Source: an uncultured Fibrobacterota bacterium
GTDB lineage: Bacteria > Fibrobacterota > Chitinivibrionia > Chitinivibrionales > FEN-1185
DNA: 64,000 nt
Direction of reading: 5' to 3'
Assembly: GCA_963753345.1 (NCBI GenBank)
Contig: CAVWBU010000019.1
Location: 64,001 to 128,000, forward strand
The position numbers and the translations under genes are program-made. The stretch's first letter is position 1. Every line of letters starts with the position of its first letter. The notes below the pieces were generated by a model. That model was not told where the DNA came from, searched no databases, and was given only the letters and a program-made list of their open reading frames with translations. This document shows positions 8,631 through 54,086 of the stretch, in pieces.

Positions 8631-9479
8631 TTACAGCGCCTCCACGAGGTGCGTTATGCCTTCGAGCGTGAACACGGGACCGTCCTGGCACACGTACACG
8701 CCGTCGATCTGGCAGTGGCCGCATTTTCCCACGCCGCATTTCATGCGGCGTTCCAGCGACACGATGACGTCGGCGTCCTTGAACCCCAGGGTGCGCAGCT
8801 CGAGGATCACGAATTTGTACATCACCGGCGGCCCCACGATGAAGGCCTTGGTGTTTTTCGGGTTGAGGCGGTCCTTGATTTTCGGGATAAGCGTGGTGAT
8901 GACGCCGGTATTGCCGTTCCACGACGGCGAGCCGCGGTCAACCGTTTCGAGAAATTCGATGGAGGTGTTCTTCTTCCACGAATCCATTTCATCGGTGAAA
9001 AGCCGCTGGGAAACGTCGGTGAAACCGCACAGCAGAAAGATCTTGCCGTAATCGGCGCGGTTGTCAAGCGCGTAGTTGATGGCCGAACGCAGCGGCACGA
9101 GCCCGATGCCCGCGCCGAAGAACAGGAGGTCCTTGCCCTTGAATTCGTCCATGGGGAAATGCGTGCCGTACGGGCCGCGTACCCCGAGGGTGTCGCCCGG
9201 CTTAAGGTCGTGGATCGCCGCCGTCACCTTGCCCACCTTGCGAATCACCATCTCGAAGCTGCCCTTCCTCGTGGGGGACGAGGAAACCGAGATGGGCGCC
9301 TCGCCGATTCCGGGAATGCAAAGTTCGGCGAACTGGCCGGGTTTGTGGCCAAGGTCTTTTCCGTCAAGTCTGAACTCGAAGTACCGGTCGCGCTCGGTCA
9401 TGGGGCTGGTCTTCACCACGGTAAGCATCTGGGGCATGTATATGGATTCGTGATTGCCGCATCCGCATGCTTCGCACAT
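8631..9479 (-). CDS. hydG: sulfhydrogenase gamma subunit (FAD/NAD(P)-binding, 2Fe-2S)
   Basis: PGQF, GEAPIS, RGPYG, GAGIGLVPLR, MKCGVGKCGHC, VCQDGPVF. Confidence 0.92.
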   Translation of the reverse strand: MCEACGCGNHESIYMPQMLTVVKTSPMTERDRYFEFRLDGKDLGHKPGQFAELCIPGIGEAPISVSSSPTRKGSFEMVIRKVGKVTAAIHDLKPGDTLGVRGPYGTHFPMDEFKGKDLLFFGAGIGLVPLRSAINYALDNRADYGKIFLLCGFTDVSQRLFTDEMDSWKKNTSIEFLETVDRGSPSWNGNTGVITTLIPKIKDRLNPKNTKAFIVGPPVMYKFVILELRTLGFKDADVIVSLERRMKCGVGKCGHCQIDGVYVCQDGPVFTLEGITHLVEAL

Positions 9480-39172: not shown

Positions 39173-39721
39173 ATGGAAACGCTCAACAACAGGATTGCCG
39201 CTTTCATACGGGAGGAGCGTTCCGCGCTGGTGGGCTACGTGCGCGCACTCATCGGCGATGCGGCAGACCGGGACGGAGAAGACATCGTGCAGGACGTGAT
39301 GACGGGCATTCTTGAGCAGGCCGACCCGCTCCTGCCGCTGCGCAGTGTGTCGGCCTATGTGTATCAGTCGATCCGCAACAGGGTTGTCGACGCTTTCAGG
39401 AGCAGAAGGAAAACCATACCTCTTGACGGAGGAGACGGCGAAGACGTGGAACTGTCGCTTTCCGAAACGCTGCATGATGCGCGGTTCGACACCGGAGCAG
39501 AAGTCGCCAACGGTGAATTGCGGGAGCTGCTGGTCGCGGCCATGGACCGGTTGAGCGAAGGGGAACGTGAAATCGTGATCGCCACCGAGCTCGAAGGCTT
39601 TACGTTCAGGGAATTGTCGGAACTGTGGGAGGTGCCCCTGGGGACGCTTCTTGCCCAGAAGTCACGGGCGCTGGCAAAACTCAAGGAATCTATTCGGCTG
39701 CAGGAATACAGAAACCAATAA
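39173..39721 (+). CDS. ECF sigma-70 factor
   Basis: EDIVQDV, RNRVVD, region 4 EGFTFRELSELWEVPLGTLLAQKSRA. Confidence 0.88.
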   Translation: METLNNRIAAFIREERSALVGYVRALIGDAADRDGEDIVQDVMTGILEQADPLLPLRSVSAYVYQSIRNRVVDAFRSRRKTIPLDGGDGEDVELSLSETLHDARFDTGAEVANGELRELLVAAMDRLSEGEREIVIATELEGFTFRELSELWEVPLGTLLAQKSRALAKLKESIRLQEYRNQ

Positions 39722-39736
39722 ACAGGGGAGGAATCC

Positions 39737-40171
39737 ATGGAAAACAGTTTTGAACACGGCTATCCGCATTTCCCGCCGCACAGGATGTGGGGGCCGGCGC
39801 GGATCGTCGGGCTAGTCATCGCAGGCGTTGTCGCGGCCGTCCTGTTCGCGCTTCTGTTCGGATGGCTTGTCTTTCTTTTGTGGAACTGGCTCATGCCCGT
39901 GCTGTTCGGGCTCAAGGCGGTCACCTACTGGCAGGCGTTCGGCATCGTATTGCTTGCCAAGCTGCTGTTCGGTGGCGTCGGCTCAGGCCGCGGATGGCAT
40001 CATGGAAAGCCGCGCTGGATGCGCCGCCGGGATTATGCAGGGAACAACGACTGGCGCGTTCATGGGTCGTACAGGGACTGGCGGTACTTCGACGAATACT
40101 GGAAGGACGAAGGAAAGGCCGCGTTCGAAGCATATATCGGCCGGATGCAGCAGAAAAAAGAAGGTGAGTAG
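39737..40171 (+). CDS. membrane protein downstream of the ECF sigma factor
   Basis: LWNWLMP.LFGL..TYWQA.G..LL.KLLFGG pattern; GGAGG RBS. Confidence 0.75.
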   Translation: MENSFEHGYPHFPPHRMWGPARIVGLVIAGVVAAVLFALLFGWLVFLLWNWLMPVLFGLKAVTYWQAFGIVLLAKLLFGGVGSGRGWHHGKPRWMRRRDYAGNNDWRVHGSYRDWRYFDEYWKDEGKAAFEAYIGRMQQKKEGE

Positions 40172-40223
40172 TAAAGTGTTTTGGTGGGGGAAGTACAGTC
40201 TGTCTTAAAAGTCAAGGCAAGAC

Positions 40224-40660
40224 TTGGGCGCCCCGCCGCTTTGCGGCGGCGGCCGTCCTTCCGGTCCACCGCTTCGGGTGCTTCCAAGGGTCGTCGGCCT
40301 TGGGCCTCGGGCTGCCTGCCACGAGGGCCCTGCGGGCCGTGGTCAGGGCGCATCCCGCTGTCGCGGGACCATCTTTCCAGTCCTGCCTGGCGCTTGGCAG
40401 CGGGAATACTGCACAATCCACACGCTTGACAAATTGGCAACTTCTTGTTCTGTTTTTTAAGAATTCAACATGGCGCAAGTATTTCTGCTTGACAGAACAT
40501 ATTTCTGTTGCCGCGCGTTAGGTGGACCGCAGGGCGCGCTAGAGCGCGTTGCCGGCCGACCCGGCCGCTAGGCATAGGGCGGACCGGCAACGAGGCGAAC
40601 AGCCGAGCCCGGAGGGAGACCGACCCGACCCCGAGCGAAGTGAGGGGGAGGGGAACGCCA
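40224..40660. repeat. two oppositely oriented family A copies (40224-40398 minus, 40510-40660 plus) at the 3' end of hgcB
   Basis: Shared blocks with the 21609, 15989 and 28324 copies. Confidence 0.8.
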
Positions 40661-40688
40661 AAATCTTTTAGTTAATATATTAATTTGC

Positions 40689-40994
40689 TTAGCAGCAGCT
40701 CCCAGAATCACCGCCGCAATCGCAGGTGCCTTTATCAGGGTCGCCCTTGGTCACAAGGCCGTTGATCATGGCGACCGCGCAACCGACCCCATTTTTTACA
40801 GACAGCGCGCCAAAGGAGCAGTTCTGAGAGCAAGCGCCGCATTCCATGCAGTTGTCAAGCGCCACGATTTGAGCACGATGATCGTGAATTTCAAAAACGC
40901 CGTGAGGACAGACTTCCACACAACGTCCGCAACCGGTGCAGTTCTCTACGGTAAGTTTCAAGGTCGATACGCCTGCTATATACGAATATTTCAT
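40689..40994 (-). CDS. hgcB: mercury methylation ferredoxin HgcB
   Basis: Two CxxCxxCxxxC motifs incl. CMECGAC, GVGCA, C-terminal CC; ATGA overlap with the hgcA stop. Confidence 0.95.
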   Translation of the reverse strand: MKYSYIAGVSTLKLTVENCTGCGRCVEVCPHGVFEIHDHRAQIVALDNCMECGACSQNCSFGALSVKNGVGCAVAMINGLVTKGDPDKGTCDCGGDSGSCC

Positions 40995-41981
40995 ACAATC
41001 CTCCAGACGTGAATGATTACCATGATGAGCAATAGTGCGGAAATTCCTGCACTCGCGAGGTAGAGCGGCCAGGCGATTTTCAACTCCACTTTAACGCCCG
41101 AAGGTGACGTATAGGTGCTGCTGCCAGTGAACAAAAACGCCAGGTACGAGCTGAACGCGGGCACAGAAACCAGGTTGAATGCTGTCAAGAATGGCGTGCT
41201 TCGACAAATTGGCGACAGAAAAATGATTGCAATTGCACCAGTCAGGCCGGTAACGAATCCCTTGAGCGAAAATGACCGGCCCGGAATGAAAGGCAGCAGC
41301 AGCGGCGAAAGGATCGTGCCGGTGAAAAGAGCGGTCAGTCCCGCTATGACGAGAGGCACAACACCCGATAGCGCTTGACGGTAAATAATACCGGTGCGTG
41401 TCATGCCAAATAGAACAGCGGCAAAGAGTAAAAAGAGCCCTACTTTTTCGAATGCGGGGAATCGTCTCCATGGGAACAAGTTTTGCACGATCAACGATTG
41501 AAAACCGCACCCGCCGCATCGCAGGACTCACGGTGCAGTTATTGTCAAGAAATGCCGGTATATCCGATGCGCGCACCGGGCCGAATTTTACCGAAAAGCC
41601 GCCGCAGGCCTTTTGCAGCTTTGATGCGGAAACACCGGATGCGCTCAGTTGCGGCAGAATGAGAGTTCGGTGTGAAATTATTGATGTAAGATTGCATGCC
41701 GAAAGCTGTTTGACTATTTCATTGGTGCAAAATGTGCCTTTTCCTGCGGCGCACCACACGTTGATGCCCTTTGTGTCAAGCACAAGGATCCAGGCGTTCC
41801 TTCCTGTCAATGAACTGCGCAATATGTTGAAGCTGAGACGGTAGTTGGCAGAAACGAACACCGGATCCGATTCCTTCGGGTCTCCGAGCGCGTAGAGGCC
41901 GGGATCAACGCGGTACCGCATGCGGAAGCGGTTGCTGAGGCGGCACATGATCGCGCCGAATTTGTCGGCAAACGAAAGCAT
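40991..41981 (-). CDS. hgcA: mercury methylation corrinoid protein HgcA (extra C in a C4 run at ~41457; true start may be 42043)
   Basis: [19 protein letters not shown], cap helix [25 protein letters not shown]; after the indel a multi-TM domain with [16 protein letters not shown]. Confidence 0.93.
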
Positions 41982-42032
41982 GGTGGTGATCTGCTTCGCT
42001 TGCGGTTTGGAACCGCAGCCGTTGGGCTGCTA

Positions 42033-43086
42033 TTATTTGGCATTGGCAGGATATCCTTTGCTTGAACTTGAGAGCGACATTTACAAGAGCGATCATAACC
42101 GGGACTTCGATGAGGGGGCCGATCACCGCAGCGAACGCCTCCTGCGAGGCAATGCCGAACACGCCGACAGCAACGGCAATGGCGAGCTCGAAGTTGTTGC
42201 TTGCAGCGGTGAATGAGAGGCTGACGGCCTCGTTATAGTTGATGCCCAGTCGCCGCGTGGCAAACATCGATCCGAAAAACATGATGAGGAAATATACCGC
42301 CAGGGGAATTGCTACTCTCACCACGTCAAGAGGCAACGCGACAATGGTTTTCCCTTTGTATATGAACATGACGAGGATCGTAAACAGCAGCGCCACGAGC
42401 GCGACAGGCCCAATGCGCGGCATGAATTGTCCGGTATACCATGGCGTGCCTTTGATGGGTTCGACGATCATGCGTGTGGCGAATCCGGCGACAAACGGGA
42501 TCCCAAGATAAATGCCGACGCTTATGGCCACGTCCTTCATGGAAACATGAACTTCGCGTCCGGCAAGCCCGAAGAGCGGCGGAAGCACGGTGACGAACAG
42601 CCATGCATACAGAGCGAAAAACAAGACCTGGAAAATTGCGTTGAAGGCCACCAGCGCCGCGGCGTATTCGCTGTCGCCTTTCGCAAGGCTGTTCCACACG
42701 ATCACCATGGCGATGCATCGCGCAAGGCCGATGATGATGACGCCGGTCATGAGGTGCGGCTGGTCGCGCAAAAAGATGATGGCCAGGCAGAACATCAGGA
42801 TAGGCCCCACTACCCAGTTCTGGACGAGCGAAAGCGCCAGCGCTTTCTTGTCCGTAAATACGCCGCCGATCCGCCGGTAATTCACTTTGGCAAGCGGCGG
42901 ATACATCATGACGATAAGGCCGATGGCGATGGGAATGGAGGTGGTGCCCACGCTCAGGCGCGACAGCGCAACGGAAGCCGAAGGAAACAGCCAGCCGATG
43001 GCGACGCCGAGCGCCATGGTACAAAAAATCCACAGCGTGAGGTAGCGGTCGAGGAAGGAGAGGCGCTTTTCGGGCACTGCCGGCAT
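42033..43086 (-). CDS. acr3: Acr3-family arsenite efflux transporter (extra base at ~42054)
   Basis: [49 protein letters not shown]; correction gives 350 aa ending QRYPANAK. Confidence 0.93.
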
Positions 43087-43114
43087 AGTGTTCCTCTTTG
43101 TCATGCTTGCAGGA

Positions 43115-43816
43115 TCAAAATGAATAAAAAAGGTACATTGCTGTCGCAATCAGCAGGAGCCCAGCGGCAGTCCTGACGATTTTTTCCACCTTTTGCAGCC
43201 GTACAAGGTTCTTGCCGAAAGAAAGTCCGAAAACGAGCGCCGACAGAGGAACACTAAAACCGATGGCATAGGCGAAAAGGTTAGTCAAAGCCCATGCAGT
43301 GTGTTTCTCAAGCACAGCGGCGCCGAGAATAATAAAAATGCCGGGATTGCACGGCAGGGAAGTCACGACAATGGTACCGCCGAAAATCATGCCGGAAAAA
43401 CCGGAAACCAAGGTTCTCGACTTATTCCCGGATGTTATGAAAGGGAGTTTCGGGAATGCAAAGGGAAATAACCGGAGCGATGCGATGCCGAATAAGAGCG
43501 CGATGGAACCCCCGGCAATTTTCCAATATTCGCCGGAAACCCGAATAGCCGTTTGTCCGGAAAAAATGATTACCGATCCTATTGCCATCAGTGCGGCAAC
43601 CGCTCCGGCTATAAATAAAAGCGCGGATTGCAATGCTTTTTGCCGGTTATCATCCTGAATAAGGGAATATCCCGCAACAGCGCCCACGAGCGGCAATGTG
43701 CAGCATGCGCTTGCGATTACGCTGAGAATACCCAAAACAAATGAAAATGCAATAGACACAGGACCGTAGCCGGCGCTGTTGAGCATCGATTTGATTGCGG
43801 CAATAGCTTCCTGCAT
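43115..43816 (-). CDS. CcdA/DsbD-like transmembrane electron-transfer protein
   Basis: About six TM helices with cysteines in SACCTLP and [16 protein letters not shown]. Confidence 0.7.
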
Positions 43817-43839
43817 TGAGATCGTCTCCTTATGAATTG

Positions 43840-44484
43840 TTATTTACAAACGCGATTCCCTCCCGCCGGGCAGCATCCGGATGGCTGCATTGCAGCGATA
43901 CATGCCTGAAGGAGGTTTGTTCGGGTGATATTATTTCCTGCCACTGCGCGCATGCCATGACCCTTGACTACAACAATCACGCCTGGAGAAGGAACCTGGG
44001 TGCTCAAGGACTCGAATTCGGGACTTCCGGCTGTAAGCTGGAATGCACCCATGCGCATGCCCTTTGCCGTAATTGTGGCCGCAGCATTGCCGATTTCCTG
44101 GGTGATGGCTTTCGTTTTCTCCGCCTCACTCTTCACCATAAGGATGAAGACCCCGTCAAAGTTGGCCGCTAAGGTATCAAGTGACGCAAAAGACGGCAGC
44201 ATGGCGAATAAAATCGATTTCCCGGTATCCCCGGCTCCCGATGTCGAATCTGTTTTTACCGGTGCCACAGATTTAAGGGAAAGTGCTGATGCATAGTTAG
44301 AAGCTGCTGGCGTTTTTGCCTGACGGGATTTGCGTACAATGGAGCTGGCCAGCACGGCACCGGCGCAAATGATAATAACGGCGAGGAGGATGACCTTTGT
44401 ACGCCGGGAAAGTCCTTTTTCAGTCTTACATGCGCAATCCGGGCCGCATTGCTGTGATTCCGGCTGCTCTGTTTTGTTTTCCAC
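43840..44484 (-). CDS. membrane-anchored hypothetical protein with Cys-rich termini
   Basis: N-terminal CGPDCAC, one TM helix, C-terminal SGCCPAGGNRVCK. Confidence 0.7.
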   Translation of the reverse strand: MENKTEQPESQQCGPDCACKTEKGLSRRTKVILLAVIIICAGAVLASSIVRKSRQAKTPAASNYASALSLKSVAPVKTDSTSGAGDTGKSILFAMLPSFASLDTLAANFDGVFILMVKSEAEKTKAITQEIGNAAATITAKGMRMGAFQLTAGSPEFESLSTQVPSPGVIVVVKGHGMRAVAGNNITRTNLLQACIAAMQPSGCCPAGGNRVCK

Positions 44485-44942
44485 TAAATGCCACCTTTTT
44501 TTTGAGGTTTATCCATGATATTGTCCGGTAACTCTTCCACAAATTTTCTGATTTCATCCCGCACACGCCGGTAATGTGGTAACGCTTCATTCTCTGATTT
44601 TGCGAGTTTCGCAAGGCTGGGCGGGTCGTCAAAACCGACGTGCAACCGTTTCACGTTCCCTGGAAAAATCGGGCATGATTGATTTGCCTGGTCACATAGG
44701 GTTATCACGAAATCGAAAGGAATATCCATCAATTCGCGGACATGCTTTGACCGCTGTTTCGAGATGTCAATGCCAGCCTCAGCCATGACTTTGATCGCAA
44801 GTGAATTCACACCGTGAACTTCAACGCCGGCCGAATACGGCTCCATAAGCTCACTCTTGAGTGCCCGCGCAAAACCTTCGGCCATCTGGCTGCGGCAGGA
44901 ATTGCCGGTGCAGAGGAAAAGGATTTTCAGTTTGGTCGCCAT
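44484..44942 (-). CDS. arsC: thioredoxin-coupled arsenate reductase (LMW-PTP fold)
   Basis: FLCTGNSCRSQMAEG, ITLCD..CPIFP, FDDP, RRVRDEI. Confidence 0.93.
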   Translation of the reverse strand: MATKLKILFLCTGNSCRSQMAEGFARALKSELMEPYSAGVEVHGVNSLAIKVMAEAGIDISKQRSKHVRELMDIPFDFVITLCDQANQSCPIFPGNVKRLHVGFDDPPSLAKLAKSENEALPHYRRVRDEIRKFVEELPDNIMDKPQKKGGI

Positions 44943-44943
44943 A

Positions 44944-45327
44944 TTACTTGCACCGCTGCATTTTACATAAACTTGATGGATTCTGTTTTGTTATTCTTGC
45001 CAAATCTTTCTGGTCTCTGATAACTATCTCATCTTTTTCCGATGCCGGCAAGACCCATTTCAGGGCGCTGCGAACCGCCGCGGTCATATCCTTGTCTTCC
45101 GGAAGCCGGTAAAACATCCACCTTTCTTCCTTGCGGCCTGCGACAAGTCCGGCCTGTTTGAGCACGGACATGTGCTTGGAGACAGTTGACGGGGCAAGGC
45201 CAAGCAATTCGATGATCTGGCACACACACAGCTCACCGCCGCGCAATGCCGCCAAGGCTCTCAAGCGGTTTGTGTCGGATAAGGCTTTTGAAATTATGAC
45301 GATGTTGTTCAAAGCATAACTCCGCAT
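44944..45327 (-). CDS. arsR: ArsR/SmtB metalloregulator
   Basis: KALSDTNRLR, ELCVCQI, STVSKHMSVLKQAGLV. Confidence 0.92.
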   Translation of the reverse strand: MRSYALNNIVIISKALSDTNRLRALAALRGGELCVCQIIELLGLAPSTVSKHMSVLKQAGLVAGRKEERWMFYRLPEDKDMTAAVRSALKWVLPASEKDEIVIRDQKDLARITKQNPSSLCKMQRCK

Positions 45328-45591
45328 TCAGGAGCAGCAGGATTGCTTCTGCTCGCAGGGGGATACATGCAGATGTTTGTTCGCAAGATCAAGAATATTT
45401 GAAGCCGACGCCTCTTTAACCATCTTCCCGGTCTCAACCGCCTTCACCATATCGCCTTCCGATATGCCCAGCTTTCGCGACTTGTCGTAGTGATATTTGA
45501 AACAGGGTTCGCAATTGCAGGCAATAGCGGCTCCTATGGCTATAAGTTCCTTGACTTGCGGATTTATCAGGCTCGCTTCATCATTTGCCAT
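45328..45591 (-). CDS. carboxymuconolactone decarboxylase/AhpD-like protein
   Basis: KELIAIGAAIACNCEPCFKYH; C-terminal CC. Confidence 0.85.
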   Translation of the reverse strand: MANDEASLINPQVKELIAIGAAIACNCEPCFKYHYDKSRKLGISEGDMVKAVETGKMVKEASASNILDLANKHLHVSPCEQKQSCCS

Positions 45592-45635
45592 TGTAAGACC
45601 TTTCTACATCAGATCATTCATTTCAAGAGTAATTC

Positions 45636-45684
45636 TATATTTCGTCACACAACGAAATATATTGCATCCCAAAACATAGTGCAA
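45636..45684 (-). promoter_or_regulatory. sigma70 promoter with overlapping ArsR-type operator for the cmd-arsR-arsC...acr3-hgcAB unit
   Basis: Minus strand TTGCAC-17 bp-TATATT; perfect inverted repeat TATATTTCGT-N6-ACGAAATATA (45636-45661). Confidence 0.75.
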
Positions 45685-45912
45685 GACTTTTGATTATGCT
45701 TCACTATTTCGCGGCTTCAATTCGCTAAAATGACCATTTTACGCGAAACTCAATTCTGTGATGTGCAGGTCTTGAACCATAATCAGATTCTTTATGTCCC
45801 AAGAAAGCAATATATCTGCCGGTGAATAGAAGATTCCGTGAATCATGAAGTACATTGAAGTTATTCACTACGAGTACTTTTCTTGCTCGGGCTGGTGTTT
45901 GTATTCCTGAAA

Positions 45913-46290
45913 TCAACCCTTCGCATGAATCAACGACCGAACAGTGGTTACGATCCGTTCGATATGCTCCTGTGTTACGGGTGTGGTCCCCTTTTGCACA
46001 CCCAGATCGGTAATCGTGATATGCGTAAAACCGCTCACTCCAGCGGCCTCAAGGATTTTCTTTGCGCAGTGTACCGTGCAACCATCAATGGCTATGGCAT
46101 TACCGCCCGCAGCTTTATATTTATCAATCAGCGCCGCGTCACCGATAGCAATCTTGGTAAGGCAGTTCATATTAACATCACCGGAGGAGTCCAGCAACCG
46201 GGTGATTTTATCGGCAAATTCTCCGGCATTTGACGCGCCGGAACAGGAAACGGCGCGGAATATCGGCCCACTGTTTTTAACATCATTCAT
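45913..46290 (-). CDS. DGC-domain putative zinc-binding protein
   Basis: CSGASNAG, MNCL, IAIDGCTVHCAKK. Confidence 0.88.
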   Translation of the reverse strand: MNDVKNSGPIFRAVSCSGASNAGEFADKITRLLDSSGDVNMNCLTKIAIGDAALIDKYKAAGGNAIAIDGCTVHCAKKILEAAGVSGFTHITITDLGVQKGTTPVTQEHIERIVTTVRSLIHAKG

Positions 46291-46322
46291 AATGCCTCCT
46301 GATAATTGGCAGCGTGGTTACC

Positions 46323-46544
46323 CTAGGTCTTTGTAAACTTGCTGATAACTTTCCGTAAAGGTTTCGACAACAGCATCATGATCGGCAACGCAACTACATA
46401 TGCCACAATCCAATTGTGCATCCACGCAGAAAAGCGTATGGAAAACCCTGCATTAATGAAAGAATTTACGCCAGTCATAATAAAGGTCATGGCGCCGACC
46501 ATTACGACCGCGAACAACGCATTGGCTTGTTTTTGAGTGAACAT
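46323..46544 (-). CDS. DUF2798-like small membrane protein
   Basis: 73 aa, two TM segments, W...W.VAY.VALP. Confidence 0.65.
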   Translation of the reverse strand: MFTQKQANALFAVVMVGAMTFIMTGVNSFINAGFSIRFSAWMHNWIVAYVVALPIMMLLSKPLRKVISKFTKT

Positions 46545-46552
46545 ATGGGCTA

Positions 46553-47251
46553 TTATATTCCGAAATACAATCCGAAATTATGTTTGAGGATAAGAAATAT
46601 TCCTACCAATAGCATCACTGCCGCGGTGATGCGCCGCACCCAGATTTCAACGGCGGTCAGCTTTTTAAAGGCAATGCCCACCAAATGCGCGCCAAAGGCA
46701 AGCAGGAGCGCGAATCCGATGACCGGCAGCGCGGTTCCGATGCCGTAAAGACTCGACAAAACCACGGCGTTGCCTTTTATTGCAAGCGGAATAAGACCCC
46801 CAAAAAACAAGCCGGCCGAGACCGGACAGAAGGCGAGCGCGAAGAGTATCCCCAGTAAACCTGCGCCCCATACTCCCATGCTGTCGATCCGGGCCTGGAG
46901 CCTGTTTCCTATGCCGCCGCCAAAGCTGAATTTCCATATGTCAATTAACAGCAGTCCGACAACGAGCATGAGCGGGCCGATAAAAAGGTTCATGTACTTT
47001 TGAAGAAAGTTCGAAACGCCGGGAATCGAAAGAAGGCCTTTTGTCACGATTATTGCCACGACAAGGTAGGCCAGGCTGCGTCCGAGGGTATATAACAGCC
47101 CGGCAATGAGAACCCAGCGGGTTTTTTCAACCCGCCGTCCGACATAGGAAATGGCGGCGATATTGGTCGCGAGAGGGCAGGGGCTGATTGAAGTGAGTAT
47201 TCCCAGCCACAACGCCGCCCCCATTTCGATAAAGGCCTCGTTCACAGGCAT
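46553..47251 (-). CDS. ArsG-like (CcdA-fold) organoarsenical efflux permease
   Basis: WLGILTSISPCPLATNIAAISY, YTLGR, FALAFCPVSAGLFFG, YGIGT. Confidence 0.75.
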   Translation of the reverse strand: MPVNEAFIEMGAALWLGILTSISPCPLATNIAAISYVGRRVEKTRWVLIAGLLYTLGRSLAYLVVAIIVTKGLLSIPGVSNFLQKYMNLFIGPLMLVVGLLLIDIWKFSFGGGIGNRLQARIDSMGVWGAGLLGILFALAFCPVSAGLFFGGLIPLAIKGNAVVLSSLYGIGTALPVIGFALLLAFGAHLVGIAFKKLTAVEIWVRRITAAVMLLVGIFLILKHNFGLYFGI

Positions 47252-47754
47252 TTCCCTTCAAGGCAAGCCCGCACTTCCTTGCGGATGTACTCCATGTATT
47301 GGGTCTGGTCGCCGACAAGCGTCCAGATCTGGTCGAGGTTTTTCCATGATGATTCCTTCCGTCTTTCCGGGTTGAAACAATCACCGATTTCGTGTAGAGC
47401 TTGTAGTCATTTGTAAAGTGCTCGTTGCCCTGGCTCTTCCACATTGACGGTTTTCCATTCCAGCTTTCCATCCTTGATTGCATTGGCGAAATCGGTTTCC
47501 ACCACGGATTTGGCGAAGTTTTCCAGTTTGTAGCAGGTAGGGCAGCGGGCGTTGCCGTGGAAATAATAAACCACGATTTTAGTATTTGCCGCTTCTGGCA
47601 TTGCCGTCACAGCTTTTGTCGAATCGGTTTTTGCCGTTGCGGTTTGTTTTGAGGTTGCTTGTTTTTGCGGTTTGGGCTTGCGCACGCATTACATGCTATC
47701 AAAAACAGAAACAGCAAACATTCCACAGAAGCATGCGCATCGGAGAAATTTCAT
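47242..47754 (-). pseudogene. ArsF-like secreted thioredoxin-fold protein, broken by three or more indels (pseudogene or read error)
   Basis: Pieces in different frames: signal peptide; VYYFHGNARCPTC; NEHFTNDYKLYTKSVIV; WKNLDQIWTLVGD..YIRKEV. Confidence 0.7.
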
Positions 47755-47774
47755 GTACCTTTTTCCTTTCCGTG

Positions 47775-48854
47775 TTACAAAACGTTAAACGAGAAGACGA
47801 AATTGAATAAGAAGCCTACCAAGAGAATTCCCGTTCCCACAACAGCAATAAAAGTTGCAATGAGCGTTGGCTTCAGCACTTTGCGCAAGATAACCATTTC
47901 CGGCAACGACAATCCGATCACCGACATCATGAACGCCAGCACCGTGCCGAGTGCGGCTCCTTTTGAAAGCAGGGCCTCCACAATGGGAATGATCCCCGCG
48001 GCATTGGAATACATGGGAATTCCTATGAGCACTGCAAGCGGCACGGACCACCATGCATGCGCGCCCATGATCTTGGCCATGAGTCCTTCCGGAACCCACC
48101 CATGAATGGCGGCCCCAACCATGATACCCGCAACGATATAGGGCCAGACCTTGACGACAATGTCTTGTACCGCCTGCCAGCCGGCATCGATGCGGTTCAC
48201 CCACGTCAGTTTTTGCGATGCAACAGCACCTCCGTTCATTCGCATGTCGTAAACCCATCCCTCCACATGCTTTTCCATACGGAGCTTTCCAATCACAATG
48301 CCGGCTGCAAGCGCGATTGATAACCCGGTTGTCAGGTAGAGCGCCGCTACTTTCCAGCCGAAAAGCCCGAAGAGCAGGACAAGCGCGATTTCATTCACCA
48401 TGGGTGCGCAGACAAGGAAGGAAAAGGTCACGCCCAGCGGCACACCCGCCTGCACGAACCCGATAAAAAGCGGGACCGCCGAACAGGAACAGAATGGCGT
48501 GACAACGCCGAGCAATGCGGCAAGAATGTTCCCGACAACCGTCTTCTTGCCCGCTAAAATCGCGCGCGTCTTCTCCGGAGTAAAGAACGACCGCACGATC
48601 CCGATGCCGAACACAATCAGCGTAAGGAGCAAGATCACTTTGGGAGTTTCGAACAGGAAAAACGCCAGGGCGTCGCCGAGATGCGTCCCATGCGCAAGAT
48701 TGAATATCGTATAGGTGAGATATTCTGAAAACCGCTTCAGCACCGAATAGACCAATACCCAGAATATCAGAAGTCCCGATATCATCGTTATTCTTACTGC
48801 GAGGGGATTCTTGGAAAATGTCACGATTACCTTCTTCTCTTCAGTAACATTCAC
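47775..48854 (-). CDS. arsP: ArsP-family permease (DUF318)
   Basis: TPFCSCSAVPLFIGF, PMVNE, GIPMYSNAAG, GLSLPEM. Confidence 0.8.
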   Translation of the reverse strand: MNVTEEKKVIVTFSKNPLAVRITMISGLLIFWVLVYSVLKRFSEYLTYTIFNLAHGTHLGDALAFFLFETPKVILLLTLIVFGIGIVRSFFTPEKTRAILAGKKTVVGNILAALLGVVTPFCSCSAVPLFIGFVQAGVPLGVTFSFLVCAPMVNEIALVLLFGLFGWKVAALYLTTGLSIALAAGIVIGKLRMEKHVEGWVYDMRMNGGAVASQKLTWVNRIDAGWQAVQDIVVKVWPYIVAGIMVGAAIHGWVPEGLMAKIMGAHAWWSVPLAVLIGIPMYSNAAGIIPIVEALLSKGAALGTVLAFMMSVIGLSLPEMVILRKVLKPTLIATFIAVVGTGILLVGFLFNFVFSFNVL

Positions 48855-49084
48855 GAAATCATCGTTTTCAATTCGTCCGGTTTTGGAATGCGACCGGCGA
48901 CTTTCACCTGGCCGTCAACGGCAAGCGCCGGTGTCGACATCACATTAAACTTCATGATTTCAATGATGTCGTCCACTTTCGTCACCTCGGCCTCTATGCC
49001 GAGTTCTTTGGCCGCTTGTTGCGCTGCCTCGTAGAGTTTCCTGCATTTGGGACATCCTGTCCCGAGAATTTGCAGTTTTTTCAT
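48851..49084 (-). CDS. small redox-active disulfide protein (MTH895/ArsE-like)
   Basis: ILGTGCPKC, VMSTPALAVDG; GGAGG RBS before MKKLQ. Confidence 0.88.
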   Translation of the reverse strand: MKKLQILGTGCPKCRKLYEAAQQAAKELGIEAEVTKVDDIIEIMKFNVMSTPALAVDGQVKVAGRIPKPDELKTMIS

Positions 49085-49100
49085 GAGGGCCTCCTGTTTA

Positions 49101-49268
49101 TTATTCGTCAAGATGAGATTTCATTCCCATGATCGTACCAGCCTCTATTTTTGAGCGCATCTCACGCAGAAACGCAAGCGCTTCCTCTTTGTCTTTGTCG
49201 ACCACGATCATTTCCAATCGCATCATTTCCTGTTTTGTCAGAGTGACGACCGTTGGTTCGTTTCCCAT
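49101..49268 (-). CDS. 55-aa hypothetical protein
   Basis: Below the ORF-track cutoff: MGNEPTVVTLTKQEMMRLEMIVVDKDKEEALAFLREMRSKIEAGTIMGMKSHLDE; AGGAG RBS; fills the operon gap. Confidence 0.6.
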   Translation of the reverse strand: MGNEPTVVTLTKQEMMRLEMIVVDKDKEEALAFLREMRSKIEAGTIMGMKSHLDE

Positions 49269-49274
49269 GCAACG

Positions 49275-50072
49275 TTACTCCTTGTGGCCCCCGAGGCCGC
49301 CGCAGATTTCAACAAGCGCATCCTTGAGGTGGCCATGAGTTCCGCCGAAAACAGGTTTACATTGCGTAAGGGCAATCTGGCCGCTCCAGAGCCGCAGCGC
49401 AAAAGCCATGCACATCCGTTCGCCGCATTCGCCGCAATTTATCTTCGGCAGGCGGTAGTAAATTTCCAGCGCAGGAGGGCGCCTGCGGAGTTTGTTGGAT
49501 GGCGTGATGGCAGCCCTGTTCTGCCAGCACTCATTGAAGCGCACCCGCAGCATTTCAAGGACCCGCCACGTATCGACGATATCGTCGGTTTTTGCCATAG
49601 CCACGCGATGCGGATATAGTGCGAGCATCCGGTGACCGTCCATGAACGTGAACGTCTGGCTATGTTCATGGTAAAAAGCCTCACGCATCAGTGAGTTCAT
49701 GTAGGGAAAAACAGGGGACAGATTGCCGGAAAAATGCGCTGTCGCCCGCAGTTTTGTCAGGTCTGCTGTGCAAGGCTGTAACACCATGATCGCCACGTTA
49801 CCGAAAACATCATCGTCGAACAGGGGCGGATTGTTTTCCGGAACATCACAGGAAGATTGACGACAGTCGACCCAACCAGAGGTAATAAACGCGCCCTGAC
49901 CGCCGCCCAGGAGTTTGCCGCGGTCTTCTTCTTCAATAACAAGTGCGGGAAGGCCGACGCGGGAAAATCCCTGACCCGGCATTATGATACTATGCTGCAG
50001 GGGCACTTTTTCCAGTACATGCCTTGCTTTTTCGAATTCCCCGGCAGAAGGGAATGTGGTCAAGATTTTCAT
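49275..50072 (-). CDS. putative Fe-S-binding protein with N-terminal extra domain
   Basis: LQPCTAD, PYMN, LYP..VAMAK, C-terminal LPKINCGECGERMCMAFA..QCKP. Confidence 0.75.
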   Translation of the reverse strand: MKILTTFPSAGEFEKARHVLEKVPLQHSIIMPGQGFSRVGLPALVIEEEDRGKLLGGGQGAFITSGWVDCRQSSCDVPENNPPLFDDDVFGNVAIMVLQPCTADLTKLRATAHFSGNLSPVFPYMNSLMREAFYHEHSQTFTFMDGHRMLALYPHRVAMAKTDDIVDTWRVLEMLRVRFNECWQNRAAITPSNKLRRRPPALEIYYRLPKINCGECGERMCMAFALRLWSGQIALTQCKPVFGGTHGHLKDALVEICGGLGGHKE

Positions 50073-50124
50073 TTCCAGCTACCTTGAATAAACATTTGTG
50101 ATAGTGCCGATGGCCGTGGTTCCA

Positions 50125-50245
50125 AGAGAAACCCCCGCCTATGGCGGGGGAGCTGGACGGCTACATAACGGCACAGGTGCCGTTTCTTTTTTCGCGGCCT
50201 ATGGGCCGCTTCAAAAAGCCACCGCCTATGGCGGTGGTCGTTTAC
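50125..50245. mobile_element. candidate non-autonomous IS200/IS605-type palindromic element
   Basis: Four consecutive perfect hairpins; outer two CCCCCGCC-TAT-GGCGGGGG and CCACCGCC-TAT-GGCGGTGG. Confidence 0.45.
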
Positions 50246-50320
50246 TCTTTTTCCTGCGCATTGCGGTCCATTTGTTGCCGTTTGGCCAAAGAGCCAATTA
50301 ATGTAACAAGCAGAAGGACC

Positions 50321-50638
50321 TCATGTGAAAACCATCTGCGATTCTACTTTCTTCTTCAATACCTCATTGACACAGGTAAAGAAATTCAGAACGCATTTCA
50401 TTTTCAAGGTGTAATAAATGCTTGTTCCGCGTTTTTCAAAACCGACAATTCCGGCGTTCTTCATGATTGAAAGATGCTTGGAAATCGTCGAAACGTCTGC
50501 CCCAACCATTTCCGTCAACTCGCACACGCATTGCTCTCCCTTAGCCAGTTCATGCACGATAAAAAGCCGGGTTGGATGAGAAAGAGCCTTCATGATTTGC
50601 GCTTGCGCTTCGAATCTGACTAAATCGGTTTTATCCAT
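50321..50638 (-). CDS. arsR: ArsR/SmtB metalloregulator (second)
   Basis: KALSHPTRL, GEQCVCEL, STISKHLSIMK, CVLNFFTC. Confidence 0.9.
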   Translation of the reverse strand: MDKTDLVRFEAQAQIMKALSHPTRLFIVHELAKGEQCVCELTEMVGADVSTISKHLSIMKNAGIVGFEKRGTSIYYTLKMKCVLNFFTCVNEVLKKKVESQMVFT

Positions 50639-50687
50639 ATTTTTTCCTTTCACTGCAAATACGACAGAAAACTTCACTTATTGTGGC

Positions 50688-50724
50688 TATTTGGTAATAT
50701 AGCCAAATACACGGAAGGAGTCAA
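50688..50724 (-). promoter_or_regulatory. sigma70 promoter with ArsR-type operator
   Basis: Minus strand TTGACT-17 bp-TATATT; inverted repeat TATTTGG-N8-CCAAATA straddles the -10. Confidence 0.7.
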
Positions 50725-50914
50725 GGGAAAAAGGTTTCTTCGAAAAATGAAAGGGACGATACAGCGTTGTGTGAAGCCTTGTGAACAAAAGACATGAAAA
50801 AACGTGGACGCAACCGTATTCCGCAGCGTATCTTAATCGTTTCACCACAGGATTAAGCCAATCGCATTGCCTCGCAGATGAAGAAAGCGCATCACGGAGA
50901 AGCATGGAAATTTC

Positions 50915-51484
50915 ATGAATGAAAGAACCTATCACCGCGGCGTGGAAAGGCTTCGCGAGCCGGGGCGAATGGCGCTCCTGGAGCCCGACCGCGTGGTGCG
51001 ACTCGCCTGCGAGAGCATGGAAATCCGCATGGTGCTCGATGTCGGCACGGGCACGGCAATCTTCGCCGAGGCCTTTGCGCGTGCCGGTCTTGCCGTGGCA
51101 GGTATTGACATAAGCGAAGAAATGCTTGCCGCAGCACGGCGGTTCGTCCCGGGCGGCGACTTCAGGCCCGGGAGCATGGAGAACATCCCGTTTCCAGACT
51201 CATCATTTGATGTCGTGTTTCTCGGGCATGTGCTGCACGAGGCCGACGACGTTGCAACGGCATTGACCGAAGCGAAACGCGTCGCAAAGAAACGGGTTGC
51301 GGTCCTCGAATGGCCGTATGTGGCGGAAGAAATGGGTCCGCCGCTTGGCCACAGGCTCAAACCAGAAAATATAGCCGCCATTGCGGGGAAGGTCGGCTTT
51401 ACAAGAATACAAATTCTTCAACTCAGCCACATGGTGCTGATCGTCATGGATGTCGGAGCGCATGCAGTGAAACGGCAGGAATAA
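50915..51484 (+). CDS. class I SAM-dependent methyltransferase
   Basis: VLDVGTGT, GIDISEEML, PFPDSSFDVV, VLHE. Confidence 0.88.
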   Translation: MNERTYHRGVERLREPGRMALLEPDRVVRLACESMEIRMVLDVGTGTAIFAEAFARAGLAVAGIDISEEMLAAARRFVPGGDFRPGSMENIPFPDSSFDVVFLGHVLHEADDVATALTEAKRVAKKRVAVLEWPYVAEEMGPPLGHRLKPENIAAIAGKVGFTRIQILQLSHMVLIVMDVGAHAVKRQE

Positions 51485-51584
51485 TGTAATGGGTTCAATA
51501 GCTGCGGAAGACTGCATGACGCCGACGGCTCTTGTCAAGGCCGCCATTGCCATCATTATTTACCAATAAACCGGAGTTTCCATC

Positions 51585-51965
51585 ATGCAAACCTCAGTAG
51601 TTCTTCTTGCCGCCATCGGTTGTCTTGCAGGACTCATTGCCGGACTCGTCGGCATCGGCGGCGCCATCATCATGATCCCGGCGCTCATGTTCATTGCCGG
51701 GTTTCCCCAACTCACCGCCACGGGCACGAGCCTTGCGGTCCTCATCATGCCGGTCGGGCTTGCCGCAGTGGTCCAGTATTACCGCGGCGGCAACGTTGAC
51801 ATAAGGGCGGCGGTCATCATTGCGGTGGCGTTCTTTTTCTGCGCATGGGCGGGATCTCTGCTTGCGAAAAGGATAAACCCCGTGGCGCTCAGGATGGGGT
51901 TCGGCGTCTTGATTGCGGCGGTGGGGGTGTACACCGTGTATACGGCGGTGAAAATGATCAAGTGA
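51585..51965 (+). CDS. TauE/SafE (TSUP) family permease, half-size
   Basis: GLVGIGGAIIMIP, ATGTSL, GNVD. Confidence 0.8.
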   Translation: MQTSVVLLAAIGCLAGLIAGLVGIGGAIIMIPALMFIAGFPQLTATGTSLAVLIMPVGLAAVVQYYRGGNVDIRAAVIIAVAFFFCAWAGSLLAKRINPVALRMGFGVLIAAVGVYTVYTAVKMIK

Positions 51966-51972
51966 AGGAGTC

Positions 51973-53568
51973 CTATTTCAGCAGCGGCAGCTTTGCGGTG
52001 ACTCGCTCCCCGTTGATTGTCGCCTTGACAAGGTAAACTCCGCCCGCTGCACCCGCAGTCTTCCAATCGGCATCAGTCGCATTCGCAAATGAAGCCACGC
52101 GCGATCCGTCCATCGCAAAAACGGCAATGTCACCGCGCAACGCCAGACGGATGCGCACGCTGCCTGCCCGAAGGTTTGTGAGAACCTTATTGCAGGGGAG
52201 GCCGCTGTCCCGGCGGCATGCGCCGGCCTCACGGCCGAACCTGCACCGTATTCGTATGCGCCCATGTCAATGCCCGCTCCAAAGGGCCGCGCATTTCCGT
52301 CGAAGTCCACTGCCGTTGCGCCGGCGGACGTGCCTGCGTCAATGGCCGGGCTTCCGGCCTTGAGATGAAAGTCGGCGACCGCGGGATCAACGGAAGGATT
52401 TACAAACAGCGGATCTGCTTCCTTGTCATGCGCTCCTGTCTTTCCTATAAGTGAAGCCACCGGGCTCCCGCTTGCGCTCCAGTAGAGATTGTAGTCAACC
52501 AATAGATTTGTGTTCGGACAACAGTCCTGCATCACATATCTGCCTGCCGGAGCATACATGATGTTGTTGAGAATCCTGGTGTTCTTGCCCTGATTCGGGA
52601 AGATTTGTCCGCGGTTTATCTCCTTGCCGTCTGGTCATTCATGTAAGCCGTATTATTGATCACATCAACATGATTCGTCTTGAATAAGCGTAATGCCGTC
52701 CCCGCCGTTGTTGAACACCACGTTGTTTTCAAGCAGCATCCGCCCCGTGTAGGCCGGAATATTGCCCGCGGTCCCGTCCTGGATGTCGATGATGATGCCT
52801 TCGCCGTCGGTGGGAACGACTGCCGCCTTGGATGGCGGGAATGCAATTCTTGTTTGAAAAACAGATGTTGCGGCAAACAAAGACTTTGTAGTCCGTGGTG
52901 TCGTTGTCGAAATTGTAATTCCAGCCGAGCGAGATCCCGCTGCAGTCATACGGGGAATACCAGGCGTTGTTATACACGGTGTTCTCTTCGATGGTGATGT
53001 AATCGGTGGTCTGCGTCGAGATGCCGCCGCCGCCGCAGTCGTGCACACTGCACTTCCGTATGACAATGTGGTGCGGGTACGGCGACGTGCCGCTCTGGTA
53101 CGACATGATGCCGTTGCCGGAGGTGAGGCAGTTGTCGCCGTCGGCCCTGTCCGCGTAGGCGGTCGCCGAATCCATGGCGGCGTTGTTGCCGATTATTTCG
53201 AGACCGCAGATTTCGATGTAGCTCGCCCCGGTTATGTAAATCCCGCCCCAGCCGTTGAATTGCAGTTTAGGATGATGGGTCGGATACGCCGTGTACACGA
53301 TCCATGCGGATGGCAAGCCCGAACGGGTGATGTTGACCACGGTGCCGTTCCACCAGCTGTTGGTGTAGGTGCCGTTCATGATGAAGACGGTGTCTCCCGG
53401 ATTGGTGGAATCCGCCGCCGCCTGGATGGTTGAAAACGGGTGCGCCGGGGTGCCGTCCATGTCGCCGCTTGCGGAGGCGGAAACGTAGCGGTTCGCGGCC
53501 TGCGGGGTGGAGAAAAGGCAGAGGGAGAGAATCGGAACGAGAAGGATTCGAGAGGTGCGATGTGCCAT
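51973..53568 (-). pseudogene. secreted right-handed beta-helix protein with T9SS-like tail, broken by ~4 indels (pseudogene or read error)
   Basis: Signal peptide, PF.TIQ.AAD..PGDTV, VHDCGGGGI, TDGEGIIID, INNTAYMN, DFHLKAGSPAIDAG..DMGAYE, GGVYLVKA spread over five ORF pieces. Confidence 0.75.
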
Positions 53569-53619
53569 AAGTACCCCCTGGTTCATGAGTTCCGGGTGTT
53601 TCTTGACAAATGGGCGCGG

Positions 53620-53775
53620 CTAGTACCGGCGCCGGATGTAATTGACAATTGCAACGCTCGCCACGATATAGACCAGCATAATAATGATGCGGGATGTTCC
53701 GTGCGGCAAAAAGACGAGCAGCAGCACAAAGATGACAATTTGGATCGCCCATGCGGCTTTGGAGACGTTGGACAT
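53620..53775 (-). CDS. 51-aa two-TM membrane peptide
   Basis: MSNVSKAAWAIQIVIFVLLLVFLPHGTSRIIIMLVYIVASVAIVNYIRRRY with GGAGGT RBS. Confidence 0.55.
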   Translation of the reverse strand: MSNVSKAAWAIQIVIFVLLLVFLPHGTSRIIIMLVYIVASVAIVNYIRRRY

Positions 53776-54086
53776 GGTCACCTCCATTCATATATGGTAT
53801 TGGCATACCAGGATGATGTCAAGGAAAATGCAGGTTGTCCCTGGGTAAGACTTCATCTCATTAACTGTCCGGCGCCATCCGACCAAGGGTCGTGCCGGCC
53901 GCAACGCCACATTACGTTTTCTGGCAGAAAACGGTTTTTTCTCCTGCCTGTTGAAAAACCCGTTTGAATCCGTTATTATTATAGCAGACAAAGACACGGT
54001 CACGAGGGAGGCGGATGCGCGTGGCACCCTGCACAGCAGCCACTTCCCGCGAAAATAGTATGTGAGGGCGGAAAGGGGGGCTGTTC

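Follow-up and report, generated by a model that had tools for sequence, protein, structure and literature searches.

The 64,000-nucleotide (nt) stretch analyzed here (the window), from contig CAVWBU010000019.1 of an uncultured Fibrobacterota bacterium, carries a compact series of minus-strand genes in which arsenic resistance functions are joined to the mercury-methylation genes hgcA and hgcB, and which appears to form an ArsR-controlled arsenic operon ending in hgcAB. According to the list of open reading frames (ORFs) and the Pfam and NCBIfam matches, the genes run from 45591 to 40689 in the order cmd-arsR-arsC-hyp214-ccdA-like-acr3-hgcA-hgcB; both this order and the common strand agree with an earlier sequence-only reading of the same DNA. 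The first gene, cmd (45328–45591), encodes a small AhpD/carboxymuconolactone-decarboxylase-like CxxC protein with a CEPC motif (Pfam CMD, E 1.5e-7), for which NCBIfam gave weak matches to AhpD-domain (seleno)proteins, including an ArsM-AhpD fusion. It is followed by arsR (44944–45327), encoding an ArsR/SmtB repressor (Pfam HTH_5, E 4.8e-16; NCBIfam HTH_metalloreg, 83.4 bits, cut-off 55), and by arsC (44484–44942), for a thioredoxin-coupled arsenate reductase of the low-molecular-weight protein tyrosine phosphatase type (Pfam LMWPc, E 2.3e-19). Since ArsC scored 146.5 bits with TIGR02691, below the family cut-off of 174.3, and since it has the LMWPc fold together with CX5R and two downstream cysteines, we named it by similarity and context.

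The next two genes encode a membrane-anchored thioredoxin-fold protein, hyp214 (43840–44484), and a CcdA/DsbD-type membrane protein that is a distant relative of ArsG (43115–43816; NCBIfam ArsG family, 41 bits, cut-off 200). Hyp214 matched no Pfam or NCBIfam family, and a search for relatives returned 314 representatives at E≤1e-3. The protein has cysteine clusters near both termini, with no variation at Cys12 and Cys16 and very little at Cys18, Cys203 and Cys212; an N-terminal ArsD domain is present in 15 of the 19 longer relatives. This ArsD-associated hyp214 family is new here. An AlphaFold2 model (mean predicted local distance difference test score 80) showed one membrane helix and a thioredoxin-like domain, which Foldseek matched to protein disulphide isomerase b/b' and thioredoxin structures (E ~2e-5). 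The two genes also stand together between arsC and acr3 in a related locus, L045, with 42% identity between the CcdA-like proteins. Hyp214 and its CcdA-like partner are arsenic-context proteins and probably act as a thiol-based metalloid-handling pair. Separately, hyp214 was considered as a paralogue of ArsF, and this was rejected by sequence, as it gave no alignment with the ArsF of locus L002.

The arsenite efflux permease gene acr3, as assembled, covers 41905–43104 (TIGR00832, 427 bits, cut-off 282.8, profile 1–327 of 327) and starts at 43104 or 43086, the ATG at 43086 being the likelier. The last gene, hgcB (40689–40994), encodes a ferredoxin that matches the whole HgcB profile (NF040864, 1–93 of 93; 112.3 bits, cut-off 99) and contains CTGCGRCVEVC, CMECGACSQNC, GVGCA and a terminal CC, which we take to be the two CX2CX2CX3C clusters, the internal cysteine and the C-terminal Cys-Cys pair of the family. 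Between them lies hgcA, which is discussed in detail below. NVWCAAGK in HgcA and CMECGAC, GVGCA and the terminal CC in HgcB, which the sequence-only reading had pointed out, are all present in the translations.

The genes are tightly packed. Read from the sequence, the spacings from cmd to acr3 are 0, 1, −1, 23 and 10 or 28 nt, and in the frames shared with relatives the native hgcA ATG (42043) overlaps the native acr3 stop (42035–42033), while the hgcA stop and the hgcB start overlap as ATGA. Overlaps and short gaps had been noted, with a limit of about 50 bp that proved too wide, as the actual gaps are at most 28 nt. The cistron overlaps are of a kind that supports translational coupling. 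No terminator-like site was found between the genes on the minus strand in a terminator scan, and the number of such sites was at chance level (9, as compared to 8.1 ± 3.3 in shuffles), in line with the lack of an evident terminator reported before. In a consensus promoter scan, too, the minus strand around the start of hgcA proved free of sigma-70-like sites. The close spacing, the overlaps and the lack of internal signals together suggest that cmd to hgcB would be transcribed as one message.

At the head of the series a −35-like hexamer, TTGCAC (45679–45684, minus strand, from reading the sequence), is located 17 nt upstream of a −10-like TATATT (45661–45656). The latter belongs to the left arm of a perfect inverted repeat that resembles an operator, TATATTTCGT-N6-ACGAAATATA (45636–45661, strandless), which was found by repeat search and is unique in the window (1 site). 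The sequence-only reading had described a consensus promoter overlapped by a perfect 10-nt inverted repeat; the repeat is there, and the promoter is near-consensus at most, with TTGCAC matching at 3/6 and TATATT at 5/6 positions. Though weak, it was credited because the same layout recurs in related loci: TTGNNN precedes TATATT by 17–18 nt in six of the seven aligned loci (the window, L001, L045, L019, L074 and L007). We scanned the window and 80 hgcA loci (1.246 Mb) for ATATTTCG-N6-10-CGAAATAT with at most two mismatches and obtained 12 sites, eight of them directly upstream of (cmd-)arsR or hgcA, whereas 20 mononucleotide shuffles gave 0–5 sites each. The window, L001, L019 and L074 share the core ATATTTCG-N8-CGAAATAT without a mismatch; it has one mismatch in L003 and L045 and two in L007 and L044, and the ArsRs of the operator-bearing loci are 41–61% identical to that of the window. 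The recurrence of this candidate operator and promoter upstream of arsR in six more hgcAB loci of Fibrobacterota is, as judged by sequence comparison, a new observation.

The window ArsR combines a winged-helix HTH_5 domain with an ELCVC pair (Cys34 and Cys36), the Cys32/Cys34-type pair on helix alpha-3 of R773-type As(III)-responsive ArsRs, and this pair is invariant in all 14 aligned ArsRs. The third cysteine of the R773 ArsR site is absent; according to a bioRxiv preprint (10.1101/2022.10.17.512643) it is unnecessary in R773 ArsR. Comparison with relatives supports an autoregulated promoter that arsenite would release. A ligand other than arsenite, such as S-adenosylhomocysteine (SAH) or a divalent metal, has been considered too, as ArsR/SmtB proteins sense many ligands and, as the same preprint describes, ArsR2 of the sulfate reducer Pseudodesulfovibrio mercurii ND132 also answered SAH-related treatments. 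We regard such a ligand as very unlikely here, because the window ArsR has ELCVC in the alpha-3 position known from E. coli ArsR, unlike the four-cysteine site of ND132 ArsR2, and heads an operon with arsC and acr3.

The weakest point of the locus is hgcA itself. It had been read as the last-but-one cistron; as assembled, the gene is split over two frames and is not one cistron. The 5' part (41456–42043) encodes the corrinoid-binding domain with NVWCAAGK and covers positions 8–190 of the 325 in the NCBIfam HgcA profile (NF040863; in ORF 41981–41091), and the 3' part (40991–41455) encodes the transmembrane domain in another frame (profile 186–321; in ORF 41494–40991). The hidden Markov model comparison that the sequence-only reading had called for accordingly matched both domains, and left each piece, at 260.3 and 88.7 bits, under the cut-off of 275; no single polypeptide with the transmembrane domain reaches that score. 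The corrinoid-binding domain was further recognized by Pfam CdhD (E 6.3e-13), and ORF 41981–41091 contains what we take to be the cap-helix motif N(V/I)WCA(A/G)GK with its cysteine, W95, C96, A97, A98, G99 and K100 being invariant in the alignment. A fusion of Acr3 and HgcA was also considered and rejected, since the frames, worked by hand from the three-frame reading, do not join.

In tblastn the intact 348-residue orthologue P0001 aligned with residues 6–204 in frame −3 and with residues 187–348 in frame −1, so that the switch falls between 41479 and 41424, and we placed it at the C-run 41459–41456. A second break separates the long-form ATG at 42043 (MPNN...) from the body of the gene at the C-run 42026–42024; this 5' lesion need not disable hgcA, because the in-frame ATG at 41981 matches the start of 327-residue relatives such as P0007. 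The third concerns acr3, where three-frame reading, the tails of relatives and tblastn place a 1-nt frame change at ~42060–42064, leaving ~50 out-of-frame residues after the last helix; the native tail frame reads KGYPANAK and is shared by P0160 (KGYPADAKRY) and P0157 (KGYSADAGQ). The suspected sites at 41457, ~42025 and 42054 hence correspond to real breaks relative to close relatives.

These breaks can be read in two ways: as errors of assembly or consensus, or as true lesions. In the window as a whole there are ~9 frame breaks in 64 kb, in bursts of 2–3 within 40–600 nt. Compared with P0001, HgcA differs at 2 of 187 residues in the corrinoid domain and at 7 of 154 in the membrane domain; most of these differences are common to outgroups, which leaves ~2 window-specific changes in 341 aligned positions. 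The window and P0001 have the same summed transmembrane-domain distance, 76, to the outgroups P0003, P0004, P0005 and P0007, and with equal sums there is no sign of acceleration or relaxed selection downstream of the hgcA break. Neither three-frame reading nor tblastn showed a stop codon in the true hgcA frames. Indels are several-fold rarer than substitutions, and a gene with several of the former and hardly any of the latter is more readily explained by local consensus error than by neutral decay. We therefore lean, on the basis of the bursts in several genes and an HgcA almost without lineage-specific substitutions, towards assembly or consensus errors rather than a true pseudogene.

Some of the same material speaks for decay. 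The breaks affect only 4–5 genes, and none was seen in ~25 others that match their families over the full length. The runs in which they lie have only 2–4 bases, in a window with 256 runs of at least 5. That so few accessory genes and such short runs are affected fits real decay. Within the arsenic genes of the region, arsG, trx, arsP, DGC, hyp214, ccdA-like, arsC, arsR and hgcB are clean in comparison with relatives. It is accordingly a sizeable possibility, if the lesser one, that hgcA is a genuine and recent pseudogene along with an arsF-like gene and a beta-helix gene farther upstream, the operon functionally ending at acr3 and the strain being non-methylating. The split HgcA with both pieces under the family cut-off, the nine neighbours read in one frame, and the accumulation of several lesions in one gene while essential genes have none, which is a classic decay pattern, all point that way, and McDaniel 2020 (PMC7438021) describes the detection of Fibrobacteres rpoB transcripts, and not of hgcA transcripts, in their samples. 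What holds us back is that the branch after the break is no longer than that of P0001, that the true frames lack stops, and that neutral decay would not usually give two or three indels beside so few substitutions. Our literature search on hgcA pseudogenes or frameshifts gave nothing relevant. The two hgcA frames meet at a CCC-C site (41459–41456), a context prone to +1 slippage of tRNA-Pro, and +1 ribosomal frameshifting could in principle yield low amounts of full-length HgcA. We rejected this as extremely improbable, since P0001, P0003, P0004, P0005, P0007, L001 and L002 read through in one frame, so that the feature is not conserved, and comparable breaks are present in other, unrelated genes of the window.

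To place the locus we compared it with the best 80 of at least 593 hgcA loci, a set that is not a census; the contig of the window is not itself among these 80, the best of which matched at 69%. The nearest gene upstream of hgcA was scored in 74 loci (L074 and L076 by substituted overlapping ORFs; L030 was left out, and the other loci outside the 74 lacked an ORF call for hgcA or an ORF upstream of it). It belongs to an ars family in 20 of them: ArsR in 14 (13 co-oriented and one, L047, divergent), ArsC in two (L001, L071), Acr3 in one (L057), DsbD_2/ArsG in one by Pfam (L002) plus L060 by BLAST, and ArsP_1 in one (L078). In the other 54 of the 74 no ars family is nearest; MarR was found in seven (L028, L034, L043, L058, L063, L069 and L080) and an AbrB/MazE-like gene in six (L004, L011, L013, L018, L027 and L038), the titles of the latter naming three Nitrospirae/Nitrospirota, two 'Deltaproteobacteria' and one Leptospira. 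BLAST with the window proteins detected a co-oriented structural ars gene near hgcAB in 11/80 loci, or 12 counting L078 by Pfam.

In a quick IQ-TREE phylogeny of HgcA (83 rows, 76 loci and 7 proteins; L010, L021, L033 and L037 were dropped as they had no ORF call), the window-like P0001 fell into a 9-row clade with L001 and L002, with a Shimodaira-Hasegawa-like approximate likelihood ratio test (SH-aLRT) support of 99, nested in a 14-row Fibrobacterota clade (SH-aLRT 92). Within the Fibrobacterota clade all seven loci of known context as well as the window are ars-linked (8/8), while structural ars linkage is scattered over the whole tree, with 11 changes compared to a shuffled mean of 11.4. 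Among the closest genome loci hgcAB keeps to ars operons but varies in position: cmd-arsR-arsC-hgcAB-acr3 in L001, arsR-hgcAB-arsC-hyp214-ccdA-acr3 in L045, arsR2-trx-arsF-arsG-hgcAB in L002, acr3-hgcAB in L057, and after acr3 in the window. We regard this clade-wide and at the same time order-shuffled hgcAB-ars linkage as new, although published figures may already show a Fibrobacterota acr3-hgcAB map. A literature search on hgcA and Fibrobacterota gave one unrelated review. A single 479-residue ORF from a metagenome, P0021, unites an ArsC domain with a complete HgcA. This one sequence represents either a natural fusion of ArsC and HgcA or the loss of a stop codon.

The shifting position, the ease with which linkage seems to be gained and lost on the tree and the 54 loci with other upstream neighbours, MarR and AbrB/MazE-like genes included, would also be expected if hgcAB were a mere neighbour, with a promoter of its own in the 3' region of acr3 or constitutive expression, and had been carried along by hitch-hiking in an arsenic island. 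We consider this unlikely, given that there is no intergenic space between acr3 and hgcA, no minus-strand promoter-like site near the hgcA start, and that hgcAB stays in an arsR-headed unit in every one of the Fibrobacterota-clade cases.

Neither the link between ars genes and hgcAB nor their control by ArsR is new to the literature (McDaniel 2020; Gionfriddo 2022/23; Peterson 2025), and links of this kind, which the sequence-only reading had mentioned, are indeed described in PMC7438021, 10.1101/2022.10.17.512643, PMC11984097 and PMC10349881. According to McDaniel 2020, acr3 and arsC flank hgcAB regions in several metagenome-assembled genomes (MAGs), and hgcA-carrying Fibrobacteres are listed; Peterson 2025 (PMC11984097) describes arsR-like genes, with acr3 and arsC nearby, that precede many lake hgcA genes and go with lower hgcA expression, and PMC10349881 reviews the link and proposes antitoxin-like regulators in archaea. 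In such MAGs, with acr3, arsC, arsM or arsR as flanks, the same gene families stand beside hgcAB as in the window, where, unlike in the neighbourhoods as described in text, hgcA is frame-broken. The closest experimental parallel is ND132, in which, as described in 10.1101/2022.10.17.512643, hgcAB transcription is ArsR-dependent and responsive to As and SAH, rising with As(III) and As(V). The arsR2-hgcA-hgcB unit of ND132 is likewise headed by an ArsR-family gene, which is there co-transcribed with hgcAB. ND132 ArsR2 has its four-cysteine site and no structural ars genes beside hgcAB, whereas the window has a regulator with ELCVC and a unit that includes arsC and acr3, with hgcAB last and overlapping acr3. 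No operator, palindrome or inverted repeat is named in the main text of the ND132 preprint.

The most similar locus is L001 (contig CAVTJU010000001.1, from an uncultured Fibrobacteraceae MAG), which shares with the window the exact operator core and the cmd-arsR-arsC head, and whose ArsR, ArsC, HgcA, HgcB and Acr3 are 61–85% identical (ArsC 68%, HgcB 85%). Unlike the window, L001 has hgcAB between arsC and acr3, no hyp214/ccdA pair and an intact hgcA. Its cmd (8852–9031) has an in-frame TGA at the second Cys of the window's CEPC and an apparently frame-shifted 3' part, and may be a selenocysteine form. R773-type ars operons have a self-regulated ArsR. The window is similar to classical arsR-arsC-acr3/arsB operons of this E. 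coli R773 type in its Cys-Val-Cys ArsR, arsenate reductase and arsenite exporter, and differs from them by the AhpD-like CxxC protein, the thioredoxin-fold/CcdA-like pair, hgcAB and the missing third ArsR cysteine.

Building on the gene identities, their spacing, the motifs, the repeat and its recurrence in relatives, we infer a transcript, its repression and its inducer as follows. A sigma-70-like promoter at the head of cmd would have its −10 element within the left arm of the 8-N8-8 inverted repeat, and an ArsR dimer on this repeat would block it. Arsenite bound to Cys34/Cys36 of ELCVC would release ArsR, and all eight cistrons, arsR included, would then be made; ArsC would reduce arsenate, Acr3 would expel arsenite, and hgcAB would be translated from the tail of the message, with start codons overlapping the preceding stops. 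As a whole, an ArsR-controlled arsenic operon ending in hgcAB, with an hgcA break that is the likelier to be an artefact, is our best explanation, at a probability of roughly 60%.

Besides the signs of decay in hgcA, several observations count against this explanation. The hexamers at the operon head were not listed by the consensus promoter scan. An internal promoter within acr3 may exist. Folding of the 201 nt 3' of hgcB (z = −1.1) gave no supported terminator, which leaves the unit without a clear 3' end. As to function, the preprint on ND132 describes the wild type as more tolerant than the hgcAB knockout to As(V) and not to As(III); a knockout as As(III)-resistant as the wild type weakens a detoxification role. 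The metalloid-detoxification role suggested in the sequence-only reading accordingly has circumstantial backing from gene linkage, and is not supported in the form in which it was put. A 2026 preprint proposes halomethane dehalogenation as another role of HgcAB. Possibly, though this is a speculative and distinctly unlikely reading, hgcAB of the Fibrobacterota clade is a fixed member of an arsenite regulon with its own operator, where HgcAB would have arsenic, or a by-product of arsenic stress, as its target and would methylate mercury as a side reaction. It was suggested to us by a gene order that shuffles without hgcAB leaving the arsR unit, and by the ArsC-HgcA polypeptide P0021; one candidate activity would be a corrinoid-dependent transfer of methyl groups to a metalloid bound to thiols, in which the AhpD-like and the thioredoxin-fold/CcdA-like proteins would assist.

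The operon is part of a 10-kb arsenic island of lower GC content (0.48–0.55 over 40–50 kb, as compared to 0.57–0.60 in the flanks), which consists of two tandem ArsR-headed operons. The second, upstream operon (45913–50677, minus strand; Pfam, NCBIfam and BLAST) begins with arsR2 (50677–50321) and continues with genes for an FeS-domain protein (50072–49275), an ArsE-family thioredoxin-like protein (49111–48851), an ArsP_1 permease (48854–47775), a broken arsF-like gene (47685–47245), arsG (47251–46553), and genes for a DUF2798 protein (46544–46323) and a DGC-domain protein (46290–45913); it resembles the organoarsenical 'operon C' of ND132 as described for that strain. Just upstream of arsR2 (50688–50709) a different inverted repeat, TATTTGG-N8-CCAAATA, surrounds a TATATT that sits 17 nt after TTGACT; the promoter-in-operator layout is repeated here with a different recognition sequence. 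Between arsR2 and the Fe-S-domain gene there are two GC-rich hairpins of the CCCCCGCC-TATG-GCGGGGG type (50129–50150 and 50216–50237), spaced by 87 nt, which may be an attenuator or terminator within the upstream operon. The sole recognizable part of the 265-residue protein encoded at 49275–50072 is PF04060, a small Fe-S domain that the gamma subunit of the corrinoid iron-sulfur protein carries N-terminally; no counterpart of this protein was found in any of the 80 hgcA loci. No Rfam family and, with ARAGORN, no tRNA were detected in the whole window, so there is no sign of a riboswitch or of a tRNA-type island border, and a repeat search of 39500–54000 gave no flanking mobile-element repeats.

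Further frame breaks were observed in three other genes. The arsF-like gene (47245–47685, minus strand) has two opposite 1-nt frame changes ~75 nt apart with a stop between them, near the G-run 47430–47428 (~47429) and at ~47350; compared with L002 ArsF, its two ends match in one frame and the section between them reads in another. A beta-helix/choice-of-anchor-Q gene (51978–53586, minus strand) has at least three apparent frame changes at ~52600–52900; these were placed by three-frame reading by eye, without homologue support, after a codon-usage frame scan, in which the hgcA and acr3 tails served as positive controls and were recovered, had flagged 52734–52866. At 10987–13519 (plus strand) the conserved ResIII N-terminus of the helicase at 11600 precedes the first start codon of that gene and abuts an Mrr_cat_2 ORF in another frame, likely a frame-broken Mrr-helicase fusion.

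The named best relatives of HgcA, Acr3 and EttA are all from Fibrobacterota (Chitinivibrionales, Chitinispirillaceae and 'Fibrobacter sp.' MAGs). The housekeeping protein EttA is 90% identical to a Chitinivibrionales MAG protein, and all eight named proteins among the 120 matches listed are of Fibrobacterota. From these protein affinities the host is a Chitinivibrionales-like member of the Fibrobacterota, and the earlier remark that this lineage does not look like a classical sulfate reducer was right.

Taken together, our results are of interest for the native role of HgcAB, on which the best experimental lead so far is an atypical ArsR in one sulfate reducer without ars genes next to hgcAB. 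The Fibrobacterota loci are a cleaner case, with a canonical ArsR of the arsenite-sensing type, a candidate operator and hgcAB that would be translationally coupled to ars genes. Gene-based survey pipelines would call this hgcA truncated or absent, and the breaks responsible may be assembly errors. The locus thereby offers operator DNA, an ArsR and an acr3-hgcA junction with which arsenic control of methylmercury formation could be tested in fermentative, non-sulfate-reducing bacteria.

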